A stretch of DNA of 64,000 bases from Ardenticatena sp. (GCA_015487975.1 WFOS01000076.1:11091-75090), one strand, 5' to 3'; shown: positions 16,740 through 34,413, numbered from the stretch's first letter. Notes: a model not told the origin generated them from the letters alone. Numbers and translations: made by a program.

Positions 16740-17309
16740 TCAAACAAGTTCGGGAATGATCAAACCGTAGTTGCCATCGCGCCGGCGATAGACCACGTTC
16801 ACTTGTCCTTCATCGGGGTTGTAGAAGATGAAGAAATTGTGCCCCAACAGTTCCATCTGCTCGATGGCTTCTTCGGGCGTCATGGGGCCCATCGCAAAAC
16901 GCTTCACGCGCACTAGTTTGAGTGGGCCTTCGCCTGCATCTTCCTGTTCCTGCAAGTCGGCAAGCCGCTCATTCATCGCGGTTTCAACCTTGTGTTGGTG
17001 GCGGGCACGAGCAATTCGCTTGCCCTTGTACTTCTCGATCTGGCGGTGCATCTTGTCCATGACAAGGTCGATAGCCGAATACAAGTCGGCTGAGCGTTCT
17101 TCGCCACGGAGCATCGCCCCACGTCCGTTGAACAATGTCACCTCCACCACGTTGCGCTGGGTGGCATCTTTGGTGTGTTCGTGGCGCAGTTCGACGACAG
17201 CCTCGGTTGCATCTGGCAGGTATCGTTCGAGTTTGCCGATCTTCTTGGCCAGATAGGCCTCCACGCGGTCATTCACCTCGATACCATTGCCAATGATTCT
17301 GATGTCCAT
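16740..17309 (-). CDS. hpf: Ribosome hibernation-promoting factor (long form)
   Basis: 'MDIRIIGNGIEVNDRVEAYLAKKIGKLERYL' plus the C-terminal dimerisation domain 'MTPEEAIEQMELLGHNFFIFYNPDEGQVNVVYRRRDGNYGLI'. Confidence 0.92.
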   Translation of the reverse strand: MDIRIIGNGIEVNDRVEAYLAKKIGKLERYLPDATEAVVELRHEHTKDATQRNVVEVTLFNGRGAMLRGEERSADLYSAIDLVMDKMHRQIEKYKGKRIARARHQHKVETAMNERLADLQEQEDAGEGPLKLVRVKRFAMGPMTPEEAIEQMELLGHNFFIFYNPDEGQVNVVYRRRDGNYGLIIPELV

Positions 17310-17423: not shown

Positions 17424-18140
17424 TCACTTCACAGCAGGAAGAAGGGCGCGACTCAATGCGAATCCGATGACAGCAGCCGCACCATGTTCGCGCAAAACGT
17501 GTGCACACGCTCCCATCGTCGCACCAGTTGTGCAGACATCATCAACAAGAAGGACAACACGCCCCTGAACAACAGCCGTATCCCCGTGGCTGAGCGCAAA
17601 CGCATCAGCCACATTCAACAACCGTTCCCGTCGACCACACCCAACCTGAGGTGGTGTTTCCCGCGTTCGCTGCAACACGTCGGCATAGGGGCTTCCTGTT
17701 GCGCGTGCCACCACCTGCGCCAGCAATGCTGCCTGGTTGTATCCGCGCTCTGCCAATCGCTGGGAATGTAATGGCACCGGCACGATAATCCCAGGCTGCA
17801 CACGCGCCGCAAGCATATGAGCAGCCATAAGATGCCCCAAAGGCACTGCGACAGCACGTTGCCCCCCATATTTGAGGGCATGCACAGCACGACGGGCACT
17901 TCCGCGATGCGGCCCAACCACCAACAACCGATCGAGAGACGCAGGAATTGAACACCGATGCCCTGGGGTGAATGGCTCATCACAACGGGCACAGCGGGGT
18001 TCAGGGAATCGTGGCCATTGTGCCAGACACGCTGGGCACAGCAGTGTGCCAACAGCACGACAGACCACGCAACGAGGTGGGAAAAGCAAATCCAAAAGGA
18101 CGTTACCCATACGTTGGAGACGGTCAAGCATAGGAGCCAT
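17424..18140 (-). CDS. comF: ComF-family phosphoribosyltransferase-domain protein
   Basis: N-terminal zinc finger 'PPRCVVCRAVGTLLCPACL...CARC' and PRTase motif 'VVLLVDDVCTTGATM'. Confidence 0.85.
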   Translation of the reverse strand: MAPMLDRLQRMGNVLLDLLFPPRCVVCRAVGTLLCPACLAQWPRFPEPRCARCDEPFTPGHRCSIPASLDRLLVVGPHRGSARRAVHALKYGGQRAVAVPLGHLMAAHMLAARVQPGIIVPVPLHSQRLAERGYNQAALLAQVVARATGSPYADVLQRTRETPPQVGCGRRERLLNVADAFALSHGDTAVVQGRVVLLVDDVCTTGATMGACAHVLREHGAAAVIGFALSRALLPAVK

Positions 18141-18173
18141 CCTGGTAGGTTGTGATTTGTGGAGTGTTGCCGT

Positions 18174-18539
18174 TTAGCGAGCGATATCGTGAACAGCGAG
18201 GGTATCACCCACTGCTGTGTGGGTCCGTTCGATTGTGCCAGGAGGAAGTTCCAAAACAGCGTAAGCCCCTCGATGAACTGGCCCGACGCGCCATGGCGGT
18301 ACAGTCGGATGCACACTCAAGACGCGCCAGATCTCGTCTAGAAACAACACATCGATGGGAAAACGCATGAAAAAAGTGTGAATAGACCAATCTGGAACAA
18401 GAAGCAACCCGTCATCGGGTGCCAGCGACCGCTGAAACATCAAACCACGCAAGCGCGAGAGGAACGTATCGGCACGGCGGGCGTGTTCGCACACAACTGT
18501 TTGCCGCGTTGTATTTTCGATACGCAGAGGTGTCATCAC
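18174..18539 (-). CDS. DUF192-domain protein
   Basis: 'ADTFLSRLRGLMF...LLLVPDWSIHTFFMRFPIDVLFLD...AYAVLELPPGT' is the DUF192 pattern. Its start overlaps the tadC stop (ATGA). Confidence 0.8.
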   Translation of the reverse strand: MMTPLRIENTTRQTVVCEHARRADTFLSRLRGLMFQRSLAPDDGLLLVPDWSIHTFFMRFPIDVLFLDEIWRVLSVHPTVPPWRVGPVHRGAYAVLELPPGTIERTHTAVGDTLAVHDIAR

Positions 18540-19468
18540 AGCGCACCCAATGCATCCATAATGCGCGGGATCGCCGGCCCCAGCAACACAATGAAGATTG
18601 CTGGGAAAATCAGGAAAACGAGGGGGAAGAGCATCTTGATCGACGCTTGTTGGGCCTGTTCTTCTGCCCGTTGTCGGCGGCGAATACGCATTTGCTCGCT
18701 CTGGGTACGCAAGACCTTGGCGATCGAAACACCCAGCTGGTCAGCCTGAATGATGGCAGCCACGAAGCCGCGAATTTCATCCACCTGTGTACGCTCAGCA
18801 AGATCGCGTAGAGCTTCGCGGCGTGTTTTCCCCAAACGGATTTCGGTAATCACGCGGTTGAATTCTTTTGCCAGTTCGTTATCGCCCCACTTTTCTGCGA
18901 CCTTTGCCATCGCCTGGTCGAACCCCAAACCGGCTTCCACACTAATCGTCATCAAGTCCAGGGCATCTGGCAATGTTTTGAGAATCATTTTACGCCGATC
19001 TTGAATTTTGCGATTGATCCAGATTCCTGGAAGCAAAAAACCAAGCAACCCGAAGCCAATGGCAAAGCCAATGACACGAATCAGTGCGGCACCACTCAAA
19101 AAGAGCAAAATTCCAGGCAAGGCCCCCAGCACGATAGCAGCCAGACCACGAACCCCCAAAAAGTCCGCAGGTGTCCAATCGTTGGGATTGCCGGCCGCCT
19201 CCAGAAGGGCACGCTGATTTTCAAGCACCTGCTGCGGGGTGAAGCGCGAAATTGTCGAAGCAAGCGAGCGAATCAGTGGGCGCAAAACACGTTCGGTGAA
19301 TGGCTCTTCCAGTTCGAGCTCTTGCAACGATGTCACTTGTCGGGTGCCATACCGAGCGATACGCTCGCTCACATCTTCGGTTTCGGTCTGCAATGCGCCT
19401 GAAAGTCCGAGGATAATCAAAAAGACGCTTGCGCCTGTCAACAATGCCACCAGGAGTGGAATCAACAT
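18536..19468 (-). CDS. tadC: Type II secretion system F-family protein (TadC-like)
   Basis: T2SSF-type topology with 'LPDALDLMTISVEAGLGFDQAM'. ORF trimmed to ATG 19468, which has a GGAGGG RBS. Confidence 0.85.
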   Translation of the reverse strand: MLIPLLVALLTGASVFLIILGLSGALQTETEDVSERIARYGTRQVTSLQELELEEPFTERVLRPLIRSLASTISRFTPQQVLENQRALLEAAGNPNDWTPADFLGVRGLAAIVLGALPGILLFLSGAALIRVIGFAIGFGLLGFLLPGIWINRKIQDRRKMILKTLPDALDLMTISVEAGLGFDQAMAKVAEKWGDNELAKEFNRVITEIRLGKTRREALRDLAERTQVDEIRGFVAAIIQADQLGVSIAKVLRTQSEQMRIRRRQRAEEQAQQASIKMLFPLVFLIFPAIFIVLLGPAIPRIMDALGAL

Positions 19469-19476
19469 AAGCCCTC

Positions 19477-20436
19477 CTAAACCTCGATCGCAATGATCTT
19501 GCGAATGGCGAAGTTCCCTGCCACGATGAGGAAAATAGCCGTCACGAGCATAATCCAGCCACACGTGGTTGTATAAAGCAGCGAAACATATTCACGATTG
19601 ACCATGAACATAAACAAGAAGAGGGCCACAGGAACGAACGTCAATACCCATCCAGCGAGGCGCTGCTGTGATGTCAGAACGCGGATTTCGCCTTGAATGC
19701 GCACACGTTCGCGAATGGTATGCGCCAGAATATCCAAAATTTCTGCCAAGTTCCCACCGACCTCTTTTTGAACGTTGATGGCGGTAATCATCATGTCCAG
19801 GTCGTCACTCGGGACACGTTCCAACAAGTTTTTCAGCGCCTGCTCTTCGGTAAGCCCAAGCCCCACCTCACGAATGACCACACGGAATTCGGCGCCAATG
19901 GGGTCGGGCATTTCCCGCGAAAGGACTTCCATGCTCTGAAGCAGACTATACCCAGCACGCAAGGAATTTGCCAGCAAACCAATAGCATCCGGCAACATAT
20001 CGTTGAATTTATTTATGCGACGCTGTTGCCGCATGCGCAACCAGATGCGCGGCAGAAATATCCCCACAATTGCGGCCCCCATCGCCAGGACAATATTCCG
20101 GAACAAAATCCAGCCGAGCAATCCCATGAGAAGAACGGTGAGGAGATTGAACGTGAACCACTCGCGCGGTGTCAGTTTCAAATCGGCGCGAGCGAGCTCC
20201 ACAAGCAGACCGCTTCGTCGTGCCTGTTCCTCCGCCAGTTCGTCAAGAAAACTTCCACCCGAATCCGATTCATCATCGATGATGTCTAGAAACTCGAACT
20301 GGCCGCTTTCGCGATGGGCATATCGTTGCAAGCGGTCGTCGACAATTTCAGCCGGTGCACTCAAAACTTGTGCCAGCCCAATGAAAACGAGCAGAATGCT
20401 GAGCCCAACCAGCCCTGCTGCAACCAACGGCGTCAT
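19477..20436 (-). CDS. tadB: Type II secretion system F-family protein (TadB-like)
   Basis: 'LPDAIGLLANSLRAGYSLLQSMEVL' and three or more TM segments. Confidence 0.85.
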   Translation of the reverse strand: MTPLVAAGLVGLSILLVFIGLAQVLSAPAEIVDDRLQRYAHRESGQFEFLDIIDDESDSGGSFLDELAEEQARRSGLLVELARADLKLTPREWFTFNLLTVLLMGLLGWILFRNIVLAMGAAIVGIFLPRIWLRMRQQRRINKFNDMLPDAIGLLANSLRAGYSLLQSMEVLSREMPDPIGAEFRVVIREVGLGLTEEQALKNLLERVPSDDLDMMITAINVQKEVGGNLAEILDILAHTIRERVRIQGEIRVLTSQQRLAGWVLTFVPVALFLFMFMVNREYVSLLYTTTCGWIMLVTAIFLIVAGNFAIRKIIAIEV

Positions 20437-20457
20437 GGTGCCATCTCCTCACCCGTA

Positions 20458-21837
20458 TTAGCGTCGCACACCGAAAATTTGTGGTGGCAGGTGAATATCG
20501 TGTTCTTCCAGCCGGTTCATAAAGCGCGGAATGATGCCAGTGGGGCGCAGGCGACCAATGATGCGACCATTTTCGTAGCCCGTTTGCTGGAAGACGAAAA
20601 TGTCTTGCATCACAATCACATCACCTTCCATGCCCTGCACTTCGGAGATGTGCGTAATCTTGCGCGTCCCGTCACGGAATCGTTCTTGGTGTACAACAAG
20701 GTCCACAGCGCTGGCGATCTGCTCACGAATTGCCCGCAATGGCAAATCCATACCAGCCATCAGGGACATGGTTTCCATACGCGCCAGGGTATCGCGCGGG
20801 CTGTTGGAGTGCAACGTTGTCATCGACCCTTCGTGGCCAGTATTCATCGCCTGCAACATGTCCAGCGTTTCACCACCACGACACTCACCAACCACGATAC
20901 GGTCGGGGCGCATACGCAATGAGTTGATCACAAGATCACGAATGGTCACTTCACCACGTCCTTCGATGTTAGGGGGGCGGCTTTCCAGCGTGACGACATG
21001 TTCCTGGTGCAATTGCAATTCAGCAGCGTTCTCGATCGTGATAATGCGTTCCCCCTCTGGAATGAAACTCGACAAGACATTGAGCAATGTCGTCTTCCCG
21101 GAACCAGTACCACCGCTAATCACAATATTCAACTGCGCCTGAACACAGGCCTTCAAAAATTCCATCGCTTCCTTGGTACAACTACCAAAGCGGATCAAAT
21201 CCTCGGCTGTCAAACGGTTGCGACTAAACTTGCGGATGGTAATCGTGGGGCCATTCAATGCCAATGGGGGAATGATGATATTCACACGGCTTCCGTCAGG
21301 CAAACGTGCGTCTACATATGGCTGGCTCTCATCGACGCGGCGACCAATCGGTGAAACAATACGGTCGATAATGCGCATCACATGCTCATCACTATCGAAC
21401 TGAATAGGCACTTTTTCGAGTTTCCCTGCCCGCTCAACATAGATGTGGTTGGGGCCATTCACCATGATTTCTGAAATCGAGTCATCTTGCAAAAGCGGTT
21501 CGAGCGGCCCATATCCCAAAATTTCGGCAATAATGGCCTCGAAAAGCGAATTGCGTTGTGCGCGTGTTAGCACCATTCCGCTTTCGTTGAGATACTCCTC
21601 GAACATAGCGCGGATGGTGTTGCGCACCTCATCCTTTTTTGAAAGATCGATTTTGGGGTCTAGTTCAGCAATGAGCTTCGACTGGATTTCGCTCTTCAAT
21701 TCCGCAAATGAATCACGGGCCGCCGGTGCTAATGGCTGCCGCCGCAGACGTGTCTCGGGCGCAGATGAAGATGCCGAAGATGTGATCCTCGATTTGCCCT
21801 TGCCATCTTTTCCTTCCAATCGCCGCAAGAGACTCAT
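20458..21837 (-). CDS. cpaF: CpaF/TadA-type pilus assembly ATPase
   Basis: 'NIVISGGTGSGKTTLLNVL' (Walker A), 'RIITIENAAEL', 'RMRPDRIVVGECRGGE' and 'GHEGSMTTLHSNS' are the VirB11/CpaF family boxes. Confidence 0.95.
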   Translation of the reverse strand: MSLLRRLEGKDGKGKSRITSSASSSAPETRLRRQPLAPAARDSFAELKSEIQSKLIAELDPKIDLSKKDEVRNTIRAMFEEYLNESGMVLTRAQRNSLFEAIIAEILGYGPLEPLLQDDSISEIMVNGPNHIYVERAGKLEKVPIQFDSDEHVMRIIDRIVSPIGRRVDESQPYVDARLPDGSRVNIIIPPLALNGPTITIRKFSRNRLTAEDLIRFGSCTKEAMEFLKACVQAQLNIVISGGTGSGKTTLLNVLSSFIPEGERIITIENAAELQLHQEHVVTLESRPPNIEGRGEVTIRDLVINSLRMRPDRIVVGECRGGETLDMLQAMNTGHEGSMTTLHSNSPRDTLARMETMSLMAGMDLPLRAIREQIASAVDLVVHQERFRDGTRKITHISEVQGMEGDVIVMQDIFVFQQTGYENGRIIGRLRPTGIIPRFMNRLEEHDIHLPPQIFGVRR

Positions 21838-21853
21838 TCCATCCTCCCATTAC

Positions 21854-23209
21854 TTATGAACGACCAAACAGCTTTCCAAACAGAGACCCATCCTTGCCTT
21901 TCTTCGGTGTTCGAGCCTGTTGTTCACGCCTGCCAGCACGTCCAGCAGACCCTTCACTCTCATCCTGGTGTGGAGATGAAACCTTTTCGCTAAATCGTTT
22001 GGCAAGCCCCAAAACACCTTGGGCAATAGGGGTACGCTGCTGATTGATGACGAACGGAATCCCTTTGTTCAAGGCATCGATGGCAACGCGTTCATTCGCT
22101 TCGATGACAGCCAGCAACGGGTGCCGAATACTGGATTGAATTGCTTCCGGTTTAATACCGGTACGCACATCATACCGGTTGAGCACAAGCTCGATTTTGG
22201 ATTCATCGTAGCCCAATTGCTCACCAAGTTCAAAGAAGTTCTTTGTATTGCGAATAGCAGGGATTTCAGTTGTCATCACCAGCAAAATTTTGTCAGCATG
22301 ATCAAGAATCGTGAGAACTGGTTCATGGAGCGAGGTACGTGTGTTGACAAATACATAATCGTATTCCGAACGCAGCAATTCAAACATCTTGACGAATGTC
22401 TCAGGCGTCACCAATTCAGCATCCACAGGGGTCAATGGTGCCAAAAGCACCTTCACACCCGATGAATGCGTTACGGAAATATCATGCAAAAACTGGATAT
22501 CAGCTTCCTCAATCGCTTCGGCCAGGTCGCGGAGTGTGCGTGTGACTTCAAGGTTCAAGAACACACTGACATCACCAAATTGCAAGTCAGCATCGACAAG
22601 CGCCACCCGGGCCGAAGGATGCTGTTGTTGCAACGCCAATGCCATGTTCACGGCCAGCGTTGTGGCGCCCACTCCACCTTTTGCTCCGAAGATTGCCGTA
22701 ATCGTTGCCCCCCGTGTGACCTGAGGAGTGCTCATTCGTGCTGCTGTTGCTTGTGCGATCCCTTGCGCGATCCCACGCTGTTCAAGACCAGCCTGAGGGG
22801 AGATGGGCGTTTCTACCTGAGGCGGACGCATCTGCTGCGCCAGAGCATAGACCCGGCGAATACTGGTACTAAGTTCATCACTCGAAAATGGTTTGATCAA
22901 ATACTCGCGTGCGCCAGCCAACATAGAACGCCGTAGGTAATCGGCGTCGTTTTGCACACTCATCATAATGACCTGGGTGCCGGGAACTTCGCGTGTGAGC
23001 GCTTCGACCGTGGCGATCCCATCCATGCCCGGCATATTGATATCCATCAAAACGATATCGGGGCGCAGTCGGCGGGCCTGCTGAATAGCCTCTTCTCCGC
23101 TGCCAGCTGTTCCCACTACTTCGATATCGTTTTCGAAGAAGAGCAATTTCTTCAAGTTTTCACGCGTATCAGCGCTGTCGTCGACGATGAGTAAGCGGAT
23201 TGTGCTCAC
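21854..23209 (-). CDS. cpaE: Response-regulator receiver domain fused to a CpaE/MinD-like ATPase
   Basis: REC domain: 'IRLLIVDDSADTRE...DIVLMDINMPGMDG...KPF'. Deviant Walker A: 'ITAIFGAKGGVGATTLAVNMA'. Confidence 0.9.
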   Translation of the reverse strand: MSTIRLLIVDDSADTRENLKKLLFFENDIEVVGTAGSGEEAIQQARRLRPDIVLMDINMPGMDGIATVEALTREVPGTQVIMMSVQNDADYLRRSMLAGAREYLIKPFSSDELSTSIRRVYALAQQMRPPQVETPISPQAGLEQRGIAQGIAQATAARMSTPQVTRGATITAIFGAKGGVGATTLAVNMALALQQQHPSARVALVDADLQFGDVSVFLNLEVTRTLRDLAEAIEEADIQFLHDISVTHSSGVKVLLAPLTPVDAELVTPETFVKMFELLRSEYDYVFVNTRTSLHEPVLTILDHADKILLVMTTEIPAIRNTKNFFELGEQLGYDESKIELVLNRYDVRTGIKPEAIQSSIRHPLLAVIEANERVAIDALNKGIPFVINQQRTPIAQGVLGLAKRFSEKVSSPHQDESEGSAGRAGRREQQARTPKKGKDGSLFGKLFGRS

Positions 23210-23300
23210 GACGCCTCTCCTTCATGTCGGATATGCTCTTTTTAGCATCGAAAGGTACGCATCCCCAGAAAGAACATCGGACCGAATCGTCTCCCCAACA

Positions 23301-24128
23301 TCATTGCGTTGGTTCAACGAAGACCGAGTCCAACAACGCCTGATCCAACCCAAAGTTGGTAAGGATATAGCGTAGCGTGACCGGTTCGACGGTATATTCG
23401 GTTTCATCACCAGCCGGGCGCAATACAAAGATAGGTGTCATATATTGAGAAATATATGTCAAGATAGCCGCCTGTTGACGATCGACGAGCAATGTATACA
23501 TGTTTCCGGCTGCTGCTTCACCATCTTCGGCTGTCCATGGCGATGTGCGCAAAATTTCAATGTTTTGCAACGTAAAAGCCGTCATATTGATAGAAGTGCG
23601 GCTCAAGTTCGGCGGTAATGTCCCCCCCAAATCCTGAATCGATGCCGAGAACGAAACAATCAGGTCAACCGTATCACCCGGACGAATGGCGCCAGCCACG
23701 CTCGAAACTTCGTTGACTGGAAACGCCATAGCAACTTTTCCCTCGGGAATCAAGAAGGACACATCCGAACGTTGCGCCGCACTGGCTCCCAACTCTTCGG
23801 CGGCTGCTTCTTTATCCACAACCATATCTCGCACAATGGGTTGGCCCTGGTAAATATCTGTCGTTGCCAGCTTATTGGCAACACTCGCCGTATCTGTCAA
23901 AGCCCCGGTAGGAATCAACTCCACTGGCCAATCGCGTACTGTGATCGCATCCGGCGGGATGACACTTCGTGCTGGAATGGGCTGAATCGCGACAACAACC
24001 GGGCGCGTTTCAACCGGTGCTGCTTCTTCGCCTGACGATGTCGCCAACATGAAGAAAACCAACCCGGCGGAAACAACGGCCAAAATCAAACCAAGTAAGA
24101 CGAGGATTCGACCACGCATGCTATTCAC
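23301..24128 (-). CDS. cpaB: Flp pilus assembly protein CpaB/RcpC-like
   Basis: N-terminal TM segment, then a SAF-like 'VVVAIQPIPARSVIPPDAITVRDWP' and the RcpC-type C-terminal domain. Confidence 0.8.
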   Translation of the reverse strand: MNSMRGRILVLLGLILAVVSAGLVFFMLATSSGEEAAPVETRPVVVAIQPIPARSVIPPDAITVRDWPVELIPTGALTDTASVANKLATTDIYQGQPIVRDMVVDKEAAAEELGASAAQRSDVSFLIPEGKVAMAFPVNEVSSVAGAIRPGDTVDLIVSFSASIQDLGGTLPPNLSRTSINMTAFTLQNIEILRTSPWTAEDGEAAAGNMYTLLVDRQQAAILTYISQYMTPIFVLRPAGDETEYTVEPVTLRYILTNFGLDQALLDSVFVEPTQ

Positions 24129-24200
24129 CTCGTATCTTCAAGTTGTTTGCGTATGGTGAGCATACCGTTTCTCATGGTTGCTGGCAAGTCAACCACGTGC

Positions 24201-27200
24201 TCAACGGAAAATAACAGGTAAATAGACATCACAATTGGGTGGACAAACGATCCTTTCGACGATGAGCCCATCAGGCAAAACACCTGTACCACCATCAGGG
24301 TTACGAACATACACATCCCATGCGCCGTTCAACTGCCCTAACAAGTCAAATGTGGCTTCAATTTGGGAACTTGAAAGCGATGTCACCACACCATCGATGC
24401 GTGCATTCTCTTTCTGAATCCAGACGGAAGCCCCTGTAGCAAAGTTCGCCCCGCTAATGGTGATGTTCTGATCATCCTGAGGCATAACACGTACCGGCGA
24501 GACAGAAACGACTTCAGGGCTTGGTGCAATGGCATCCGTCACTGTAATGACCAAGGGACCAATCAAATTATTCGTTTCAGGCCACTCTGGGATAGGCCAA
24601 CCATTTCCTGTACCACCATCGCCATCATCTGTATTGACCTGCGCATACACGTAATAGGTGCCAGGGGTTGCAAATGACGTATATGGCGTTCCCATCGAAT
24701 CGTCACTGGAAAGTGTCACACGCCCATTTTGCTGCAAAGAAGCCCCATTCACGTACCAGTAGGTGCCAACATCGGACAATTCCATGCGTGAAGGTGGATT
24801 CGGTTGCGAACGCACATACAAATCTGCCCAAATTCCCCACGTTTCTGGATCAGGGAGCTGATCGACGCTTGGCATTCCCGTCATACGTGCCTCGAAAGTA
24901 ATCACGACAGGCTCGCTAGTGCGTAAGACGGTGCGTGTCGCTGCCAACCCAGATGCCCAAAAATCACCAGCGACAGGGACGAAAATGGGTTCACCCATTG
25001 CAGCATGACCACTCGCATCCTTCACACCATACTCGGTATTGGCAATCCCACCTGCATCGACACTATCGACACGCACGGTATACGAAACAACACCACTTCC
25101 ACCTAGTCCCACAAGGTCAGTTGGCCATGTCCATGAAAGCACATCACCAACTACGACAGCACCATTGGATTGCAGCAAGGTCGTGTTCGCTGGAATACGG
25201 TCCGTTACAACGATGCCGGTCGCATCCATATCGCCCGTATTGGTAAATGCCAACGTAAACGTCACCACATCATTTGGCAGCACACCGCTCGATGGCTGGG
25301 CACGCTTGCTGATATGCAAAACGGGGCGGCTGGTCAATGTCAAGAGTGCCTCGTTGGACATGAGATCGCGAGCGGAAAGCGTTCGCGCCTGAGCCGTATT
25401 GGTGATAGCGGTTGTACCAGCCGGGAGTGGGCGATCGACCCGGACCCGGAAGGAGAGTTCACCACTCTGACCAATCGGCACTGAACCAACAACCCAACGT
25501 AGTTCCGGAAGGTTGGAGGCATCGGCACCGGGGCCACTGATTGAATCAGTGAGATACGTTGTGTGAAGCGGAATGGTGTCCGTCAACACAACATCGCTCA
25601 AATCGACGTTCCCCGTGTTGGTATAGACAATCCGATACAACACTTCATCCCCTGCTTTGGCCACTGCAGGAATGGCTTCTTTGCGAATGTCCAGCTGGAC
25701 TGTCGTGGTAATCGTGTTGAATACTGCGTTACTGAAAGCCGGTAAGCTATCAGTACTACTAATAGTGGCTGAGTTGAAAATGTCGTCTCCCGAAAATGCC
25801 TCGACATCCGTGTTCACTTGCACTTTGAACGTGAGTGTCCCACCACTGTGCGGTGCGATTTCTGGCACCAACCAGCGTAAAACAGGTGGTGTCTGGTTTG
25901 TATCATATTCAAAGGTAAAGTTTGCTGGATGTGTTTCCGAGCCAACGACATAGAGCGTGTTCGTCGGCACAGCATCTTCGATGACGACATTGCGCGCCGG
26001 TATATTGCTGGTATTGGAAATCTCCAATGTGTATTGGATCTCCTGACCAGGCACAACCAGGCCTTGCGGCGAGTTTGCCTTCGTGAAATCGAAGCGGACG
26101 ACTTCCAAGTCATTCAAGACCTGTGATCGATTGTTTCCTGGGTCTACATCGGGTCCAGGATAATCGATCTCGACCGTGTTGGTGATCACCGGGCGAGCCT
26201 CTTGCAACGGTAAGGCAGTCAGGACATCCGTTACACGCAGGGTCACAGTGATGGTATTCGTGACACCAGGTTCTACCCGTCCGAGATTGGCAGTGTACAT
26301 ACGATCGCCTGTTTGCGTCACCCCAGCAAATGCAAATGGATGCGACGCATTCACGAAATCAACATAGGAGGGGAAGGTCTCGGTCAACACCGCATTCGTA
26401 GCCACCGAATCTGCCGCCGTCGCGCGGTTTCCATACTGAATCGTGTATGTTATCAAGCTTCCACGGGCAATGAAACCTGTATTCAAACTTGCTTTCGAGA
26501 CCCACAAATCAGGAGGCGGAACTTCATACACCAACTGCACCCGCTGCACAGAGGGGGTTGTCTTTGTAAAGGCCGTTCCCATACGGATACGATATTGTAC
26601 GAACTGTCCGCTTGTTCCCAGAGGTAATTGAATCGAATCCGTGTAGATGCCGTCTGGCTGACGCAACGTTTGCGTGTAGGTACTGTGGAAAGGCCCTATC
26701 CAGGGAGCTTTCTGCAAGTTGCTCAAAGAGCCATCTGCCACGCGATATTCAATCGTGACAGTCACAGGAGTCGTATTCAGATCGAGAGTTGGGCTGATGA
26801 AAGTCGTCCACCGCAATTCGCGCAACGTGCGGTTCGAGAAAAGCACAATTGGGCGTGAGACGAACTCGCCATAAGGTGCATACTGGGATGCGGCCCCGCT
26901 CATCGAGCCATAATCGACGACATTCGTCCCTGGGGACGCAATCCCTTCACTCGCCCCGCCAATCACGTAAATCCATCCACGGCTCGAAATGACAGCATCA
27001 TGGAGAAATCGCGTAAGCGTCAGCGCCTTCGTCTCGAACCAGAAATCGATGCCGCCATCAGGACGCACGATCCCAGTCGTCACTTTGTCCGATGCTTGGT
27101 TCAAATTACTCCCAGATGCACCACCGATGATCAAAAACTGACCATTGTATTCCACAGCTGCAGCATGCCGCCGTTGTTCCGGCAAAGGCTGTGTCGTATT

Positions 27201-28226
27201 CCACCCCCCGGGAATAGGGTCCGTTAGTCCCTGTGGCGTTGCGTAGTAAACGTTGCTCGCAATGTCGCTTCCAGCAATGTTGTACAATCGGCCTTCATAT
27301 GCCAATGCTGAACTCCCGAACACTTTTTCAGGGAGATTCGGGGTAAGACGCTTCCATTGGGAGATCGTACCATCCGCATTGGGCTGTGCGGCAAAAATAC
27401 ATGCTGATCCATCCAAAACACCCGGCTGTCCCCCGATCACATAAATCGTATCGCTCATGACAATAGCCGCTGTACGAGCACGCCCCGTCTCCCCATTTGT
27501 CAATTCGTCACACAACCCCTTAGTATCCGATATAGGAAGCGGAGTCGTCTCGGTGAAACTCCCCAATGAGCCATCAGTGACATCGATAGGCGCGAAGAAA
27601 ACCGTATCGGTCACGATATAATTCTGATCGATCCCACCAATTACATACAAATAATTGTTCCAAATAACCGATTGATGTCCATAGATTGCCACTGGCAATG
27701 AAACGGGAAGCGTTTCCCATATCCCAGGTTTGTCGGGCGTATCAGGCACATTGCTTGTAATAATCGTCGTATGATAAATCGCGGCAGATGGCACTTGATT
27801 GACTTCTCCGCCGATAACGTACAAATGCTCTACACCTTGTGCATCTTTGAAAATTTCCACCGTATGTGACTTGATGGCCGGTAATCCCTGCCCCATATCC
27901 GAATACCAATTACCCGCAAGCCCAATTGCCAACAAGGTAATCTCACCATTCCCATCTCCTACAGGTGCATCCCGCCGTGAGACGCCCGTCAAGTAACCAC
28001 GTCCCTCGAAAAAATCTTGTTCGGTGTCATCCTCGATGATTGCCAAGAGAGGTGTGGCTGCTGGCAAAGCCGATCGTCGAACCAGAGAAGAAGGCGAGGC
28101 ATTACGTGCATCGACAGGCGAAATCCACAAAATGGTCAAGAGCATCGAAACGCCTAAAACAAGCAAAACCCCCAAACTCATCAAGAAGAATGCCCCGCGA
28201 CGAGAAACTCGTAACAAGTGGAACAT
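24201..28226 (-). CDS. 1341-aa exported surface protein: six Kelch-like blades, four DUF11-type repeats and a C-terminal IPT/TIG domain
   Basis: Signal/TM segment 'FFLMSLGVLLVLGVSMLLTIL'. Repeated 'LYVIGG/IYVIGG/FLIIGG' Kelch blades. DUF11-like units 'ITYTIQYGN...', 'IQYTLEISNTSN...VIEDAVP', 'VLYRIVYTNTGN...VLTDTIP' and 'VTFTLAFTNTGD...VVTDRIP'. IPT-like 'NITISGANFATGASVWI'. The protein ends '...CDVYLPVIFR'. Confidence 0.85.
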   Translation of the reverse strand: MFHLLRVSRRGAFFLMSLGVLLVLGVSMLLTILWISPVDARNASPSSLVRRSALPAATPLLAIIEDDTEQDFFEGRGYLTGVSRRDAPVGDGNGEITLLAIGLAGNWYSDMGQGLPAIKSHTVEIFKDAQGVEHLYVIGGEVNQVPSAAIYHTTIITSNVPDTPDKPGIWETLPVSLPVAIYGHQSVIWNNYLYVIGGIDQNYIVTDTVFFAPIDVTDGSLGSFTETTPLPISDTKGLCDELTNGETGRARTAAIVMSDTIYVIGGQPGVLDGSACIFAAQPNADGTISQWKRLTPNLPEKVFGSSALAYEGRLYNIAGSDIASNVYYATPQGLTDPIPGGWNTTQPLPEQRRHAAAVEYNGQFLIIGGASGSNLNQASDKVTTGIVRPDGGIDFWFETKALTLTRFLHDAVISSRGWIYVIGGASEGIASPGTNVVDYGSMSGAASQYAPYGEFVSRPIVLFSNRTLRELRWTTFISPTLDLNTTPVTVTIEYRVADGSLSNLQKAPWIGPFHSTYTQTLRQPDGIYTDSIQLPLGTSGQFVQYRIRMGTAFTKTTPSVQRVQLVYEVPPPDLWVSKASLNTGFIARGSLITYTIQYGNRATAADSVATNAVLTETFPSYVDFVNASHPFAFAGVTQTGDRMYTANLGRVEPGVTNTITVTLRVTDVLTALPLQEARPVITNTVEIDYPGPDVDPGNNRSQVLNDLEVVRFDFTKANSPQGLVVPGQEIQYTLEISNTSNIPARNVVIEDAVPTNTLYVVGSETHPANFTFEYDTNQTPPVLRWLVPEIAPHSGGTLTFKVQVNTDVEAFSGDDIFNSATISSTDSLPAFSNAVFNTITTTVQLDIRKEAIPAVAKAGDEVLYRIVYTNTGNVDLSDVVLTDTIPLHTTYLTDSISGPGADASNLPELRWVVGSVPIGQSGELSFRVRVDRPLPAGTTAITNTAQARTLSARDLMSNEALLTLTSRPVLHISKRAQPSSGVLPNDVVTFTLAFTNTGDMDATGIVVTDRIPANTTLLQSNGAVVVGDVLSWTWPTDLVGLGGSGVVSYTVRVDSVDAGGIANTEYGVKDASGHAAMGEPIFVPVAGDFWASGLAATRTVLRTSEPVVITFEARMTGMPSVDQLPDPETWGIWADLYVRSQPNPPSRMELSDVGTYWYVNGASLQQNGRVTLSSDDSMGTPYTSFATPGTYYVYAQVNTDDGDGGTGNGWPIPEWPETNNLIGPLVITVTDAIAPSPEVVSVSPVRVMPQDDQNITISGANFATGASVWIQKENARIDGVVTSLSSSQIEATFDLLGQLNGAWDVYVRNPDGGTGVLPDGLIVERIVCPPNCDVYLPVIFR

Positions 28227-28287
28227 GGGAGACTCCTTCCTCGATTATGATACACATAGACCATGTCCAAACGGAGCGACATGCAAG

Positions 28288-28308
28288 AGGGGGGCATCAA
28301 GCCCCCCT
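28288..28308 (-). other. GC hairpin between the TadG-vWA gene and the giant protein gene
   Basis: 'aggggggc atcaa gcccccct' forms an 8-bp stem. The U-tract on the minus strand is weak, so it may be a processing or attenuation element rather than a full terminator. Confidence 0.3.
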
Positions 28309-28330
28309 TTCTACGCTAGCACGTCGAACA

Positions 28331-30580
28331 CTACGGACACCACGTCGGGCGGGCAGCACCATCGCACGTGCTCAGGTACAAGACTTCCACTTGTGTAACT
28401 CCCGTCCCTTGCCCAACGCTGACTTCGACATAGCCACCACGCGGATTGTCCGGGTTACGTGGTGGGCCACCATTCCCATACGTCAGGATATCATACACTA
28501 AGCCATTGCGATTGACACGTGCCGTGAGCCGATATGTCCCTGGTGCCACATCCGTGAACTGATAAGCACCAGCATTGTTGGCTGTCGTCGTTTGCACCAC
28601 AGCACCACTGGTCGTACGCAATTCGATCGTTGCACCAGCTCCCAACGTTTCCTTCGTGTAATACGTCCCCTCTTTACCAATCTGCTGGACGCGATTCCCA
28701 ATAAGTTGGTAGATATTCGCCAAGTCGGAAGCATTACGCGCGACGTAGAAGTGGCGTTCATAATCATCGATGCGCCCATTGCCATCGTAATCGACATCTG
28801 GTGAGGCAATCGCTTCGGTCACCGCAGTATTGAACCCATCACCAATTGCAATCGAGAAGACAATGATCCCTGCTTCTTTCGCCAAATTTGCTTGGTCGAT
28901 CGTCTGTTGTTCAGCCTGGTTATTGCAAGCAGGTGTATTCTGCCCTTGACCAGCAGCACCACCAAAGCCTGTCCACTTTCCGTCAAGCGTAACGTTTACA
29001 ATGCCATCCGATGCGATAATCAAGACCGGAACGGCACCGGGCCGTAAATCAGCCAACAACTGCTCGCGGGCTGTTTGGATGGCATGCGCCAATGACGTCG
29101 CACTATTCGCATTGAGACTCCGAATAATACTATTGACATATGCGACATTGTCCGTGAGAGGCGAACGCACCTCCGAATACAAACGGGTACGCAACCTGTA
29201 ATTGTCACATACTGTGCGATATTGTGAGCCACTCGAAACCGTCGGGAACGTCGTCAACCCAACCCTGTCACCTTCAACAGTATTCAACGTATTATTGAAA
29301 GTGATCAGCGCGTCTTTGGCAGATTGCAGTTTCGACGAACCGCCCGACCATGACGCCCTCATCGACCCCGAAATATCCAGTACCAACATCACATCCACGG
29401 GGATCTTTTGCTCAGTCGTTCCTTCCGTGTAGAAGATTTCGTTCAAGTGGACTGTACCAGCAATCACACGCCCTAGGTCGGCAGGTGGTTCATCATAGAG
29501 CTTGACGGTTTGCGTCAGATAGCACCCACCACCTGGCGGTGCTGTGGTATCAACATAGCGTTCAAAGACACCTTCGATCCACTTGTTCCGTCCACGTGCC
29601 TTGTAATCCGTCAAGCGGAAGCGGGCAAAGCCCACAATGTGATACCGCAGATTGTTACCACGCCCCGTCGTATAGTCGTAAATCGGCACCACAACCGAGG
29701 GATCATGCTGAATGGTTACACCATCATGCGAATGGGTCGCCCCCGAAATATACGCATCCAGCTCGTTCCGTACGCTACGACTTTTCATCACACCAGTCGC
29801 ACCTGGCAGCATGTCCCCCACACGCCACGTCCCGCTGCGGCGGGTGTCATGCATGTTGGAAACAAGCGTTGTGTTGCTGGGATCGTTGTTCCACGAGACC
29901 CAACCGAAGTTTCCATACGAGGAATTGTTGCCTTTTTCCCAGATACGGTAGGTTGCCCCCTCGATCGGCTTGCCCCCGGGATCATCCTGGAACAACGCAG
30001 CACTCACCGCTATAGGAAAGAGGTTACTTGCACTGGCTGGGCACCAATTCGGGTTGGCTTGTGCAAAAGCATCGGCAGATGTTTCCATCTCGTCGAAGCC
30101 AATAACACGCGCGAAGAATGTTTGGAAATCCAGCGTCGAGCGGACTTCGATACCACTGACCTCATACGAAGGCGGAATCCCACCATTGTTGGGCAGTGGC
30201 ACCCCCACGCGTTCTCCACCTGGCCCAATGAAGTATGCCTCGATGTTCGTATTGATATCGTCATTGGGATTGCCATTGCTATCTGGAATACCATTGGCTT
30301 GCGCAACGCGTATAATGGTCTGCCAAATACGTCTCTCATCCTGTACTGTCCCCGCATAGCGGCCACTATTTGGGTCAACAGCAACGCGTGCCAGTTCGGC
30401 ACCACCGGCCAGCGTTGCCGCATCGACAGCATTTTGCACACGCTGGCGTTGCACATACGCATTCCCAGCGTCGGTTACCAACGCCAGGAGCGCCATCAGG
30501 GCAACCAGAGCGCCACCGATAATGACAAGCGACTGCCCGGCCTCCCGATGCAATGAACGGAAAATCTTCGTTCCTCTCAT
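28331..30580 (-). CDS. TadG/TadE-like N-terminal domain fused to a von Willebrand A domain and a C-terminal Ig-like (CarboxypepD_reg/SdrD-B-like) domain
   Basis: N-terminal 'GQSLVIIGGALVALMALLALVTDAGNAYVQRQRVQNAVDAATLAG' (Tad N-terminal type). vWA MIDAS 'VMLVLDISGSM' and 'IIASDG'. C-terminal 'NAGAYQFTDVAPGTYRLTA'. Confidence 0.85.
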   Translation of the reverse strand: MRGTKIFRSLHREAGQSLVIIGGALVALMALLALVTDAGNAYVQRQRVQNAVDAATLAGGAELARVAVDPNSGRYAGTVQDERRIWQTIIRVAQANGIPDSNGNPNDDINTNIEAYFIGPGGERVGVPLPNNGGIPPSYEVSGIEVRSTLDFQTFFARVIGFDEMETSADAFAQANPNWCPASASNLFPIAVSAALFQDDPGGKPIEGATYRIWEKGNNSSYGNFGWVSWNNDPSNTTLVSNMHDTRRSGTWRVGDMLPGATGVMKSRSVRNELDAYISGATHSHDGVTIQHDPSVVVPIYDYTTGRGNNLRYHIVGFARFRLTDYKARGRNKWIEGVFERYVDTTAPPGGGCYLTQTVKLYDEPPADLGRVIAGTVHLNEIFYTEGTTEQKIPVDVMLVLDISGSMRASWSGGSSKLQSAKDALITFNNTLNTVEGDRVGLTTFPTVSSGSQYRTVCDNYRLRTRLYSEVRSPLTDNVAYVNSIIRSLNANSATSLAHAIQTAREQLLADLRPGAVPVLIIASDGIVNVTLDGKWTGFGGAAGQGQNTPACNNQAEQQTIDQANLAKEAGIIVFSIAIGDGFNTAVTEAIASPDVDYDGNGRIDDYERHFYVARNASDLANIYQLIGNRVQQIGKEGTYYTKETLGAGATIELRTTSGAVVQTTTANNAGAYQFTDVAPGTYRLTARVNRNGLVYDILTYGNGGPPRNPDNPRGGYVEVSVGQGTGVTQVEVLYLSTCDGAARPTWCP

Positions 30581-30609
30581 AAGCCTACCTCACGCACTCT
30601 TCATGGGGT

Positions 30610-31029
30610 TCAATAGAATCCAATGGACGTTACTTCCATTGAAAATGGTCGAGAAATTGTAATACTATTATCTGTGAGCAACAAAGGAATACGAATCGTT
30701 GGTAAGTTGAATGTGTAATACGATGTAATCGTAATCTGATCACCTGTGCGATCCAAGACTACAGATGGTGTCCCAATAAGCCCCACAAAGTTCGGTTTGA
30801 CGGCATTATCGATGATCTCTTGATTGGTCGCCGTCGGGTGGCGTGTTGCGTAACTCACACCCTCTGTGGTCGCATGATACATCACAATCCAGGCGTAAAA
30901 GGCATAGGACATCGCTACAAAACCGATCAGCGTCCCTACCAGCAACGGCAAAGAAAGGGCAAACTCGCTCAACGATTGCCCTTGCTCCCGCTTCTGCTTC
31001 CACCGGTACCGTCGCAACATACTTACCAT
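30610..31029 (-). CDS. TadE-like pseudopilin
   Basis: 'EQGQSLSEFALSLPLLVGTLIGFVAM' is a TadE N-terminal motif. 139 aa. Confidence 0.8.
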   Translation of the reverse strand: MVSMLRRYRWKQKREQGQSLSEFALSLPLLVGTLIGFVAMSYAFYAWIVMYHATTEGVSYATRHPTATNQEIIDNAVKPNFVGLIGTPSVVLDRTGDQITITSYYTFNLPTIRIPLLLTDNSITISRPFSMEVTSIGFY

Positions 31030-31538
31030 ATCGTCTCTACCGTCATACTATATCGAATTTGATACTCACTTGGCAGCCCAAAACGTCCAACGATAGGAAA
31101 ATTCAGTGTGCTGGTAAACAAATCATTCAAGGAATATGTAACACTTACAAAAATTTCATATCGTCCATTGCCAATATCTGTATAGACAGGGTCTGAAATA
31201 ACCAGACGCGCCGGATCGAGCCCCTTTGTTTGCGCCGATTCAACAATGCGCCGACAAAATTCATACAACGTTGGTGTCTGACTCTGGCTGAGATCTGGAT
31301 CCTGGCAATTCGAGCGCCCCAGTTCGTTCAACATCGCCGGTTTGTCGATGAGATACAACGCACCATGCCGTGTCGATGACACCAGTGTCAAATACGTGGT
31401 AAACACCCGCGCCATTTCAAAGATAGCGACCAACATCACCAGCAGAAAGATGAGCGTGAGCGACATCTCCACAAGGCTTTGCCCATGCTCTCGCGCATAT
31501 ATCCATCTTTTCGACTTCAGTATGTGTTCACGCACCAT
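31023..31538 (-). CDS. TadE-like pseudopilin
   Basis: 'EHGQSLVEMSLTLIFLLVMLVAIFEMARVF'. ORF start GTG 31571 was rejected because it lies inside the -10 of the promoter below. ATG 31538 is used instead. Confidence 0.75.
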   Translation of the reverse strand: MVREHILKSKRWIYAREHGQSLVEMSLTLIFLLVMLVAIFEMARVFTTYLTLVSSTRHGALYLIDKPAMLNELGRSNCQDPDLSQSQTPTLYEFCRRIVESAQTKGLDPARLVISDPVYTDIGNGRYEIFVSVTYSLNDLFTSTLNFPIVGRFGLPSEYQIRYSMTVETIW

Positions 31539-31571
31539 AGTCTCACTACTGTTGTATCGTTTTCTTACCAC

Positions 31572-31600
31572 ATTCTAACAGGGAAAGAGAAGAGATGCAA
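31572..31600 (-). promoter_or_regulatory. Candidate sigma-70 promoter of the tad gene block
   Basis: The minus strand reads TTGCAT-N17-TAGAAT, about 30 nt upstream of ATG 31538. Confidence 0.55.
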
Positions 31601-31725
31601 TAGGTATTGTGTGCATCCTTGCAGGCAAAAATCTGGGACTTTCGTTAGTCGCGTGGGATGACTTTTGCACGCTATACGCCCACTGTACAGCAAAAAGGTT
31701 ACGGCTTATATTACAAGCGAGCGCA

Positions 31726-32547
31726 TTACATGCCAAATCGGCGGCGCAAGATGAAGGCCCCAACCAATGAAAGCCCAAACAATGCTGCGACAAGGAGCCA
31801 GAGGTCTGCAAATGTGCTGGCGTCATCGCCAGTTGCGGGAAGAACCCCTTGCACCTGTGGGGTGAGTGTGGGCTGAGGGGTAGGCGTTGTGGTAGGCATG
31901 CCTGTTTGGCCAAGTACGAGACGCAAAGAAACGACTTCACCCGGTGCACCTGTGGTTTCAAGTGCTGCTCGTGCCAAGACCTGCCCCTCGACCAATGCTT
32001 CGATGACGGCTTGTCCAGCCCCAAGATTATCGAAGTAGAAGAAGCCATTTGAATCAGTCAGCCATTCCGCCTGCCACCCTCCGCCACGCAAACGCACCAG
32101 CACACCTGGCCAGCCAGCACCCTGAGCATCTACGACAAACCCCTCGACACGCGAAAAGCAACACTGTGAATTCGGGCCCACAGTACCGTTGGTGTCCCCA
32201 GCGTCAGCCCGAGTTGGGGTTGGCGTGGACAAAGGATGGCTTGTCTGAGTAGGTTGCGGTACGGAAGTGGATGTGGCTGTTGGCGTATTCGCCGGAACCG
32301 TCGATGTTGGTGGGACTGGGGTGGGCGTGAATGTTGGTGTGGGCGTGACGTCTGGTGCTGTTGTGGTTGGTTCCGGCGTTGGTGTCGCCGTTGCCGTTGG
32401 CGGAACGGGCGTTGCCGTAGAAGTTGGCGTCGGCGTTGGCGTTGCACGCTGTTGCAATGGCGACGCCGCATATCCCACCGCAGGAAATACGCCAAAGAAA
32501 ACAAGAACAAGGACCAGGTCCATGCGCTTGATGAGAATACTCATCAT
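31726..32547 (-). CDS. Exported Pro/Thr-rich protein with a CarboxypepD_reg-like domain and a C-terminal LPXTG-type sortase signal
   Basis: Signal peptide 'MDLVLVLVFFGVFPAVGYA'. Long P/T-rich linker. 'VEGFVVDAQGAGWPGVLVRL...TDSNGFFYFDNLGAG'. The C-terminus 'LPATGDD...LWLLVAALFGLSLVGAFILRRRFGM' gives LPATG, a TM segment and a basic tail. Start ATG 32547 has an AAGGAG RBS. Confidence 0.8.
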   Translation of the reverse strand: MMSILIKRMDLVLVLVFFGVFPAVGYAASPLQQRATPTPTPTSTATPVPPTATATPTPEPTTTAPDVTPTPTFTPTPVPPTSTVPANTPTATSTSVPQPTQTSHPLSTPTPTRADAGDTNGTVGPNSQCCFSRVEGFVVDAQGAGWPGVLVRLRGGGWQAEWLTDSNGFFYFDNLGAGQAVIEALVEGQVLARAALETTGAPGEVVSLRLVLGQTGMPTTTPTPQPTLTPQVQGVLPATGDDASTFADLWLLVAALFGLSLVGAFILRRRFGM

Positions 32548-32560
32548 CCCATTGCTCCTT

Positions 32561-33688
32561 TTACGATGCAGATGGCAAACGTGGTGATGCGTTTTCGGTT
32601 GGTGCCAGCGCGGGCATACGAACCTGGACCCGTGTCCCTCGGCCGGCAGCACTATCCACCTGCATTTTACCTTGCAACATTTCAATGCGCTCTTGCAGAG
32701 TTGTCAAGCCGATGCGCTTCTGTTGGGCTGATGTGCGCAAAACAGCACCAACATCAAACCCCACACCGTCATCTTCGACCGTCAGAACGATTTCATCGCC
32801 TTGGCGGTCGAGCGTGACGAGCACGTTGCTGGCATTGGCATGGCGCTCGACATTGCGCAACAATTCCTGCAATGTGCGGAAAAGCGTAATCTCGATCGTT
32901 GGATCGAAGCGCTGATCGTCACCCAACACCTGCAATCGGATGGTAAAAGGGACTTTGTTCTGCAAAGCCTCTACATAACGCTTCACAGTGGGAACCAGCC
33001 CCAAATCGTCCAGCATCATGGGGCGCAAATCGAAGATAAAGTCGCGGATCTGTTGGAATGTGGTATTGACCGCATTTTTGAGATTGTTCAATTCAACACG
33101 TGCCCGCTCAGCGTCCATATCGAAGAGCCGCTGACAGACTTCGGCTTGCAAAATCAGGTTCGTCAGTGATTGTGCCGGGCCATCATGCATCTGGCGTGCC
33201 AAATTGAGGCGCTCACTTTCCTGCGCTTCGATCAGCTGGACCACCATTGCCATACTGTCGAGCGGCACAACCTCACCCTCTTCATCACCCAAACGCAGGG
33301 CTGATGTTCCTGGCGCCGTTTCAGTTGCTTCGGCAAACGCCACCACTCGCTGCAACATTTCTGCGTAACGTTCAAGGATGCGTTGCTTATTTTGCAACTG
33401 CTCGATCTGGCTTCGCATCATGAACAAGCGCATCTGCATTTCATGTGCCGCCGTATAGAGCGCCTTGATATCTTCGCGCGGCACTGTATCGAAGTTCATT
33501 TCCATCTGGCGTACACGATTTTGCGCCTGCAAATTGCGCTGCGCCAGCCGCTCAACCTCGGCGGTACTCTGCCGAATCAGCACATCCAGCTCGCGTAATT
33601 CCCCTTGAATGCGCTCCAACTCCTGCGAGGCATCCTCATGCAATTCGTGCAGTTTTCGCAAAAAACCCGTTGACTGTTGCATACTCAC
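32561..33688 (-). CDS. Cytoplasmic DegS-like sensor histidine kinase (HisKA_3 + HATPase_c)
   Basis: Coiled-coil N-terminus. H-box 'LARQMHDGPAQSLTNL', N-box 'LLRNVERHANA', G1 'VEDDGVGFD' and G2 'GLTTLQERIEMLQG'. Confidence 0.9.
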   Translation of the reverse strand: MSMQQSTGFLRKLHELHEDASQELERIQGELRELDVLIRQSTAEVERLAQRNLQAQNRVRQMEMNFDTVPREDIKALYTAAHEMQMRLFMMRSQIEQLQNKQRILERYAEMLQRVVAFAEATETAPGTSALRLGDEEGEVVPLDSMAMVVQLIEAQESERLNLARQMHDGPAQSLTNLILQAEVCQRLFDMDAERARVELNNLKNAVNTTFQQIRDFIFDLRPMMLDDLGLVPTVKRYVEALQNKVPFTIRLQVLGDDQRFDPTIEITLFRTLQELLRNVERHANASNVLVTLDRQGDEIVLTVEDDGVGFDVGAVLRTSAQQKRIGLTTLQERIEMLQGKMQVDSAAGRGTRVQVRMPALAPTENASPRLPSAS

Positions 33689-34401: not shown

Positions 34402-34413
34402 GAGAGCCTCCCT

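Follow-up and report, generated by a model that had tools for sequence, protein, structure and literature searches.

A pilus locus of the type IVc (Tad/Flp) kind was analysed in 64,000 nucleotides of DNA from Ardenticatena sp. (GCA_015487975.1 WFOS01000076.1:11091-75090), a stretch referred to here as the window, which is part of a 90-kb metagenome scaffold. Positions 17424-32547 of the minus strand carry a continuous row of closely packed genes, among them one for a giant Kelch protein of 1341 amino acids (aa), and all 13 reading frames are intact. Pfam and NCBIfam scans and translations recovered every gene that had been listed in an earlier reading made from the sequence alone (the sequence-only reading), in the order and with the domains given there. 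The features of the row are listed below, with the evidence for each in brackets.

31726..32547, minus strand: LPATG sortase substrate (translation, Pfam)
31571..31599, minus strand: promoter-like string TTGCAT-N17-TAGAAT (seen in the sequence; weak)
31023..31538, minus strand: TadE-like minor pilin 1 (TadE1), 171 aa (PF07811, motif, orthology)
30610..31029, minus strand: TadE-like minor pilin 2 (TadE2), 139 aa (PF07811, motif, orthology)
28331..30580, minus strand: Tad-N/vWA/SdrD_B protein of the TadG/CpaL type, 749 aa (Pfam, translation)
24201..28226, minus strand: giant with Kelch, four DUF11 and TIG domains, 1341 aa (Pfam, AlphaFold2 (AF2) model, Foldseek, family alignment, synteny)
23301..24128, minus strand: CpaB/RcpC (PF16976 (RcpC) and SAF; TIGR03177 at 5.9e-34)
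21854..23209, minus strand: TadZ/CpaE, a fusion of a receiver and a ParA/MinD-type ATPase (Response_reg and AAA_31/CbiA)
20458..21837, minus strand: CpaF/TadA secretion ATPase (PF00437 (T2SSE), 7.7e-69)
19477..20436, minus strand: TadB platform protein (PF00482 (T2SSF))
18536..19564, minus strand: TadC platform protein (PF00482 (T2SSF)); the true start is probably 19468
18174..18539, minus strand: DUF192 protein (PF02643), overlapping the tadC stop
17424..18140, minus strand: ComF-type phosphoribosyltransferase (Pfam, NCBIfam, synteny)

By its gene content, as read from the sequence, the locus represents the half of a Tad/Flp pilus system that provides assembly and the tip; the system is of a known kind and comes from an understudied phylum. 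The TadA/CpaF ATPase, the TadB and TadC pair, TadZ/CpaE, CpaB/RcpC, two TadE proteins and TadG are all encoded. The receiver of TadZ/CpaE is canonical (the DD...D...K residues are retained) and probably phosphorylatable. The G+C content of the tad block (18001-34000) is 0.50-0.54, below that of both flanks (0.57-0.62).

CpaF and glutamine synthetase belong to the same 90%-identity clusters as the proteins of Ardenticatena maritima (KPL88245.1 and KPL88260.1, respectively), so the host is a close relative of this cultured species. Proteins of the locus are retained at ≥ 90% identity in several assemblies and in A. maritima. The A. maritima genome lacks lipopolysaccharide (LPS) and outer-membrane-protein genes (PMC4653789) and the cells presumably have one membrane only (PMC5808234). 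No secretin was found in any Pfam scan of the window, as expected for a single-membrane bacterium. Together with a sortase substrate and a sortase encoded in the window, this upholds the assignment of the locus to the monoderm type.

The Kelch protein and its LPXTG neighbour

The giant begins with an ordinary Sec-type signal peptide, in a region that is not conserved within its family, and signal-peptide-like N-termini are present in all family members. The 1341-aa protein is therefore not a pilin, and a pilin-like N-terminus was ruled out. Its head (approximately residues 60-575) is conserved and consists of N-terminal strands, a six-bladed Kelch propeller and a beta-sandwich. C-terminal to the head are four DUF11/CLIPPER repeats, a TIG domain and the tag CPPNCDVYLPVIFR. 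The AF2 model of the head is confident (predicted local distance difference test (pLDDT) 87.5, predicted template-modelling score (pTM) 0.88). With this model, Foldseek returned generic Kelch domains (E about 1e-15), the best 50 matches listed all being six-bladed Kelch propellers.

Proteins with this head are mostly of 680-790 aa and form at least 22 clusters at 50% identity. A search of representatives with a Kelch-head profile was dominated by multi-Kelch giants, with approximately 22 single-stretch full-length members in the best 150. The part that follows the head varies, being a proline- and threonine-rich (PT-rich) linker and a small Cys-rich knob in most members and DUF11 repeats with a TIG domain in the giants.

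The locus was compared with 80 loci around CpaF relatives in species-representative genomes. In all 10 independent loci examined that carry it (the window, L012, L023, L085, L086, L087, L090, L091, L092 and L095), the Kelch gene has tadG on one side and cpaB on the other. L094 has the gene order of L086 and is probably from the same species, so it was not counted separately. The carriers include Thermoflexus (L012), Ca. Aquidulcis (L023) and an Ardenticatenia member (L085), and the classes involved share only about 25-30% identity. Among the genomic contexts that could be read, none placed a family member anywhere but in a tad locus. This fixed slot rules out a chance insertion of the Kelch gene, an explanation which the sequence-only reading had allowed for and which the conserved synteny refutes. 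The giant of L085 has 46% identity to that of the window, an equivalent architecture and 1333 aa; L092 encodes a second giant, of 1321 aa. In L085 the gene (10001-13974) is split into four consecutive open reading frames (ORFs) of 789, 333, 152 and 59 aa, by either assembly frameshifts or pseudogene formation.

A large Sec-exported non-pilin protein encoded in a minor-pilin operon recalls PilY1/PilC of type IVa pili, which combines a propeller with vWA-type adhesion. Here these functions are split, with the vWA domain in TadG and the propeller in the product of the next gene, and the propeller is N-terminal and conserved, whereas that of PilY1 is C-terminal. The resemblance may be taken as analogy only; homology is unsupported by sequence or fold. 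PilY1 homology of the giant was rejected since Foldseek and a sequence search of solved structures gave Kelch proteins only, and the PilY1/PilC family was absent from Pfam and NCBIfam scans of the giant.

The LPATG protein combines an N-terminal signal peptide with a PT-rich stalk, a CarboxypepD_reg beta-sandwich and a classical sorting signal (LPATGDD...LWLLVAALFGLSLVGAFILRRRFGM), in which LPATG is followed by a hydrophobic segment and an RRRFGM tail. The gene starts 13 bp past the stop codon of a kinase gene and is separated from tadE1 by a 187-bp gap. Small PT-rich LPXTG proteins also adjoin the Kelch gene in L085, L012, L023, L086/L094, L090 and L095. The window itself encodes a sortase:

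4925..6292, plus strand: sortase, about 451 aa (PF04203, gene table of the sister assembly)

It is unusually long, lies 25 kb from the LPATG gene and may be the enzyme that acts on the LPATG protein. In the related Kelch-type loci for which a gene table was read, no sortase turned up at a distance of 10 kb or less.

The giant itself has neither an LPXTG signal nor a membrane-spanning tail and ends in a tag of 8 to 10 residues, [YF]LPxIx[RK]. In most Kelch members the tag follows the consensus phi-[YF]-L-P-phi-[IV]-x-[RK](-x-x-P). An LPXTG neighbour is present in every tag-bearing Kelch locus with a readable flank, and it is absent from the tag-less L087 and L091 and from all other tad loci fetched. 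This association is a lead and not proof. Many large secreted Chloroflexota proteins end in the tag, for instance as ...DVYLPVIFR, ...IVYLPLILR or ...MFLPLIQHTP. Tag sites in the window and tag-ending proteins elsewhere are:

24201-24230: tag of the giant
59819-59850: tag of a Calx-beta protein
40720-40755: a third tag site
L004 146-1948, L013 671-2002, L036 and L130 13993-15723: tag-ending proteins in other loci

Since it is carried by unrelated secreted proteins, the tag is a general signal and not pilus-specific. The Calx-beta protein includes a 'choice-of-anchor Q' domain. Proteins with 'choice-of-anchor' domains typically end in some C-terminal sorting signal. The tag matched none of the Pfam and NCBIfam models, known C-terminal sorting models included, and string searches of the literature returned frog peptides only; it may serve in sorting or anchoring, as a signal yet to be described.

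The giant resembles Gram-positive adhesins of the MSCRAMM type in its signal peptide, N-terminal head, Ig-like stalk repeats (DUF11, SdrD_B, TIG) and C-terminal sorting region. As in MSCRAMM systems, a classical sorting signal is found, in the adjoining LPATG protein, and a sortase gene is at hand in the window. Unlike MSCRAMM adhesins, the giant carries the tag in place of an LPXTG signal. A literature search returned nothing relevant linking Kelch proteins with tadE or tadG, and neither the Kelch/LPXTG module nor the C-terminal tag appears to have been described before.

Minor pilins, Flp and the prepilin peptidase

Prepilin cleavage sites are predicted in TadE1 (EHG/QSLVE) and TadE2 (EQG/QSLSE). 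TadG has a prepilin-like N-terminus, HREAG/QSLVIIGGALVALMALLALV, in which EAG/QSLVI is followed by a hydrophobic helix (PF13400 at 3.3e-9). Its vWA domain (PF00092, PF13519) contains the DxSxS motif of a metal-ion-dependent adhesion site (MIDAS) as DISGS (residues 402-406), and its C-terminal domain is SdrD_B/CarboxypepD_reg Ig-like. Homologues of TadG-vWA occupy the equivalent slot in L023, L085, L090 and L092. Both the position of the gene and the N-terminus (G/QSLVI) agree with the placing of TadG-vWA among minor pilins or tip factors, and its domains suggest a tip minor pilin of a known type, that of Caulobacter CpaL. The AF2 model of TadG, made from only 7 homologues, is poor (pLDDT 37.7), so the TadG/CpaL assignment rests on sequence. 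No sequence match to TadG was found among solved structures.

As in Caulobacter (CpaJ/CpaK/CpaL) and Aggregatibacter (TadE/TadF/TadG), two small pseudopilins are co-encoded with a large vWA/MIDAS TadG (PMC11870444). This CpaL/TadG architecture has been proposed to lie at the pilus tip with the two small minor pilins (PMC11870444, PMC12075869). In contrast to those systems, in which the trio follows cpaB-tadZABC, it precedes them here; TadG has an additional SdrD_B/CarboxypepD_reg Ig-like domain, there is no secretin, and a gene for a non-pilin Kelch protein comes after tadG. The Kil 'Tip' of Myxococcus (KilL/KilM/KilN) is likewise made of minor pilins, the largest of which presents a C-terminal domain that varies (PMC12075869). 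Kil Tips differ in that they lack a vWA domain, belong to a diderm predator and are not associated with Kelch or LPXTG genes.

The sequence-only reading had found no Flp pilin in the locus and no A24 prepilin peptidase in the 64 kb, and both statements held. A scan of all ORFs of 25-200 aa on both strands of the window for G-x4-E followed by a hydrophobic stretch matched only the two TadE genes, and tblastn of six Flp sequences against the window gave matches limited to TadE1, TadE2 and the N-terminus of TadG. No A24 peptidase was found in Pfam scans and gene tables of window ORFs of about 90 aa or more, nor was the GxGDVK signature found in the window, and the same survey gave no secretin. 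Flp, A24 and secretin genes are also missing from approximately 8 kb of further scaffold on one side and 10 kb of the sister assembly on the other. Thus the possibility that Flp or TadV lies directly outside the window was not borne out in about 18 kb of adjoining sequence. As TadE1, TadE2 and TadG retain their G/QSL prepilin sites, an A24 peptidase must exist elsewhere in the genome.

These absences are no peculiarity of the locus; they proved to be the usual state of Chloroflexota tad loci. A canonical Flp of 48-56 aa (...KG/QGLVEYALIL...) is encoded in about half of the Chloroflexota loci, between the kinase gene and cpaB or tadE. It is missing from at least 8 of the 21 Chloroflexota loci that have full 10-kb flanks, and the 10-kb flanks on both sides are free of Flp in L004, L012-L016, L026, L034, L085, L087 and L091. 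The A24 signature (GxGDVK in a multi-pass membrane ORF) is beside none of L001-L034 and L081-L092 (about 45 Chloroflexota loci) and adjoins 10 non-Chloroflexota tad loci. A metagenome scan with an Flp sequence showed that orphan Flp genes, with CpaF, TadB and TadC absent within up to 10 kb, are common; in L115, for example, a unit of response regulator, DegS kinase and Flp genes is followed by housekeeping genes. Similarly, rcpC-tadZABC, tadEEG and flp occur as separate sets in Chloroflexales (PMC7332563), and the prepilin peptidase of Bifidobacterium breve is encoded at another locus (PMC6916266). The absence of Flp and TadV genes from the locus is therefore ordinary for Chloroflexota and is not to be read as a sign of a pilin-less pilus.

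Canonical, highly conserved Flp proteins are encoded in five of the Kelch-type loci, L023 (930-1091), L086 (7682-7837), L090 (2298-2450), L094 and L095. These are near-identical across Chloroflexota classes (MYLPREEGQGLVEYALILVLVAIVVIAIL...), which is striking for the subunit of a surface fibre. A protein search with Flp gave 7953 matches at E ≤ 0.001 among 8000 candidates scored; the best 120 were 84-100% identical, and none of these 120 was labelled as coming from Ardenticatena.

Each of the two TadE proteins has its one-to-one orthologue in the TadE pair of L085, which has no nearby Flp, and in those of the Flp-carrying L023 and L090. Between Flp-positive and Flp-negative loci, the size of TadE does not drift towards an Flp-like length. 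TadE is therefore not replacing the major pilin, and a fibre built from TadE, as had been suggested, is unlikely.

Like the monoderm Tad systems of B. breve and Micrococcus luteus, that of the window is a minimal machine without a secretin (PMC6916266), but the loci of those species have flp beside tadE/tadF and are without CpaB, a Kelch protein or an LPXTG partner. The repertoire (rcpC-tadZABC, tadEEG, flp) matches that of Chloroflexus, Roseiflexus and the tad operon of Litorilinea aerophila, where flp may also sit apart (PMC7332563, PMC13319060). Pili of these bacteria have been observed by electron microscopy (PMC7332563, PMC13319060). Kelch and LPXTG genes have not been described in the tad clusters of Chloroflexus, Roseiflexus or L. 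aerophila, and most Anaerolineae loci fetched have the order histidine kinase-Flp-CpaB-CpaE-CpaF and no Kelch gene.

A proposed arrangement at the cell wall

The reading that we favour, and to which we give about an even chance, is of a Tad machine whose Flp and TadV are encoded elsewhere, with a TadE-TadE-TadG tip and with the Kelch and LPXTG proteins as a lineage-specific extracellular accessory. By homology, CpaF powers assembly, TadB and TadC make up the membrane platform, and the receiver-type TadZ and CpaB complete the machine, under a two-component system of the DegS-type kinase and GerE-type regulator encoded upstream. The Flp major pilin and TadV would be supplied from elsewhere in the genome, as in many Chloroflexota and in Bifidobacterium. 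TadE-TadE-TadG may act as a priming and tip complex, exposing the vWA/MIDAS and Ig-like domains of TadG as an adhesive tip in the manner proposed for CpaJ/K/L and the Kil 'Tips'.

The Kelch giant, exported by Sec, would have a wall-associated layout, with its N-terminal head far out, a variable stalk and the anchoring end at the C-terminus. It may cooperate with the sortase-anchored, PT-rich LPXTG protein as a pilus accessory, the latter providing a covalent link to the wall. The combination of a conserved head with a variable stalk favours a conserved partner over a variable environmental ligand. Most likely, the head would be kept at a fixed distance from the wall and engage such a partner there, be it the tip or fibre of the pilus or a common attachment surface.

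Several points weigh against this reading. A physical link of the Kelch and LPXTG proteins to each other and to the pilus is hypothetical. Kelch-type loci are a minority, found in 2 of approximately 34 Chloroflexota representative loci. The window and its adjoining sequence yielded no Flp or TadV gene of the host, and the structure model of TadG failed. The co-occurrence of tag and LPXTG neighbour rests on few independent lineages, L087 and L091 looking like one clade, and the tag also ends unrelated secreted proteins of the window (the Calx-beta protein, 59819-62218, and the ORF at 38965-40755).

A more specific and rather doubtful proposal is that the Kelch head and LPXTG protein form a wall-anchored, extracellular module by which the Tad pilus of single-membrane Chloroflexota is docked, guided or capped. 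Such a module might stand in for the missing late-stage components of envelope crossing or might itself be a PilY1-like tip partner, and the tag would then be a new C-terminal sorting or anchoring signal of the phylum. The known monoderm Tad machines look minimal (PMC6916266). A conserved, surface-exposed, non-pilin pair of Kelch head and LPXTG stalk, encoded between the tip genes and cpaB, provides candidates for the step by which type IV or Tad pili pass through, and are held in, the thick envelope of monoderms, or for a new tip partner. The Tad machine and the TadG-vWA protein are of an already-known type; it is the Kelch/LPXTG addition and the tag that appear to be new. Being shared with other secreted proteins, the tag is a separate lead and may be a new sorting signal. 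As the host is a near relative of A. maritima, the proposed roles are testable; strain 110S of that species is a cultured, filamentous iron reducer that attaches to minerals.

The strongest competitor of the accessory reading, possible though clearly less probable, takes the giant and the LPXTG protein for surface adhesins or glycan binders of an ordinary kind. An adhesion island would carry them as cargo, perhaps under joint regulation with the pilus genes, and they would have no physical or assembly link to the pilus. The Sec signal, the Ig-like stalk repeats and a tag common to unrelated secreted proteins are all in keeping with independent adhesins, as is the return of generic Kelch propellers only in the fold search. 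The position of the LPATG gene, which abuts the kinase gene at 187 bp from tadE1, and the shifts of the LPXTG gene in position and strand among relatives also fit. However, cargo would not readily explain the slot between tadG and cpaB, fixed in 10 of 10 independent loci from such divergent classes, or the lack of family members outside tad loci. Furthermore, a conserved head on a variable stalk is the opposite of what is expected of an adhesin for variable ligands.

It is unlikely that the system works without Flp, with TadE/TadE/TadG forming a short pseudopilus or fibre that either displays the vWA tip or, in the manner of type II secretion, pistons the giant through the wall. The lack of Flp in approximately 82 kb of scaffold and sister-assembly sequence would be explained in this way, as would its absence from the 10-kb flanks of L085 (the nearest relative), L087 and L091. 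Against this, the same TadE/TadE/TadG/Kelch set co-occurs with canonical Flp in five other loci, the TadE proteins are orthologous across Flp-positive and Flp-negative loci with no Flp-like shift in size, and orphan Flp genes are common. Moreover, the giant has its own Sec signal and a piston is needless in a single-membrane bacterium.

Decay or silencing of the locus, with its pilin lost, could be suggested by the missing Flp and TadV genes and the lower G+C content, but is very improbable given the tightly packed, intact reading frames and the ≥ 90% identity at which the proteins are kept in several assemblies and in A. maritima.

Regulatory and flanking genes

Genes on either side of the row include the following.

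33685..34401, minus strand: response regulator with receiver and GerE/LuxR helix-turn-helix domains (gene table of L081)
32561..33688, minus strand: DegS-type histidine kinase with DegS, HisKA_3 and HATPase_c domains (Pfam)
16740..17309, minus strand: HPF, a ribosome hibernation factor (neighbour of ComF)

Homologues of the DegS kinase with 40-54% identity are encoded upstream of the tad genes in many loci. A response regulator and DegS kinase pair precedes most Chloroflexota tad loci, as it does the orphan Flp gene of L115. Upstream with the kinase and regulator genes of the window there is a second HisKA_3-like gene within 32561-35187 on the minus strand.

A promoter of the form TTGCAT-N17-TAGAAT had been proposed upstream of tadE1. 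The string is present at approximately 31599-31571, but only 8 of its 12 positions agree with the consensus, and it falls below the scan threshold. The region contains 21 promoter-like sites, compared with 14.9 ± 3.6 expected in shuffled sequence, which is no excess. With so partial a match and no enrichment of such sites, the string was dropped as evidence.

DUF192 genes directly follow tadC in many monoderm tad loci (Chloroflexota, Bacillota and Actinomycetota). The DUF192 protein looks like an unrecognised Tad accessory, and a literature search returned nothing relevant linking it with tad. In essentially every Chloroflexota locus seen, ComF and HPF genes come downstream of tad. Given that the Tad pili of M. 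luteus drive DNA uptake (PMC4322843), ComF could conceivably be connected with the pilus.

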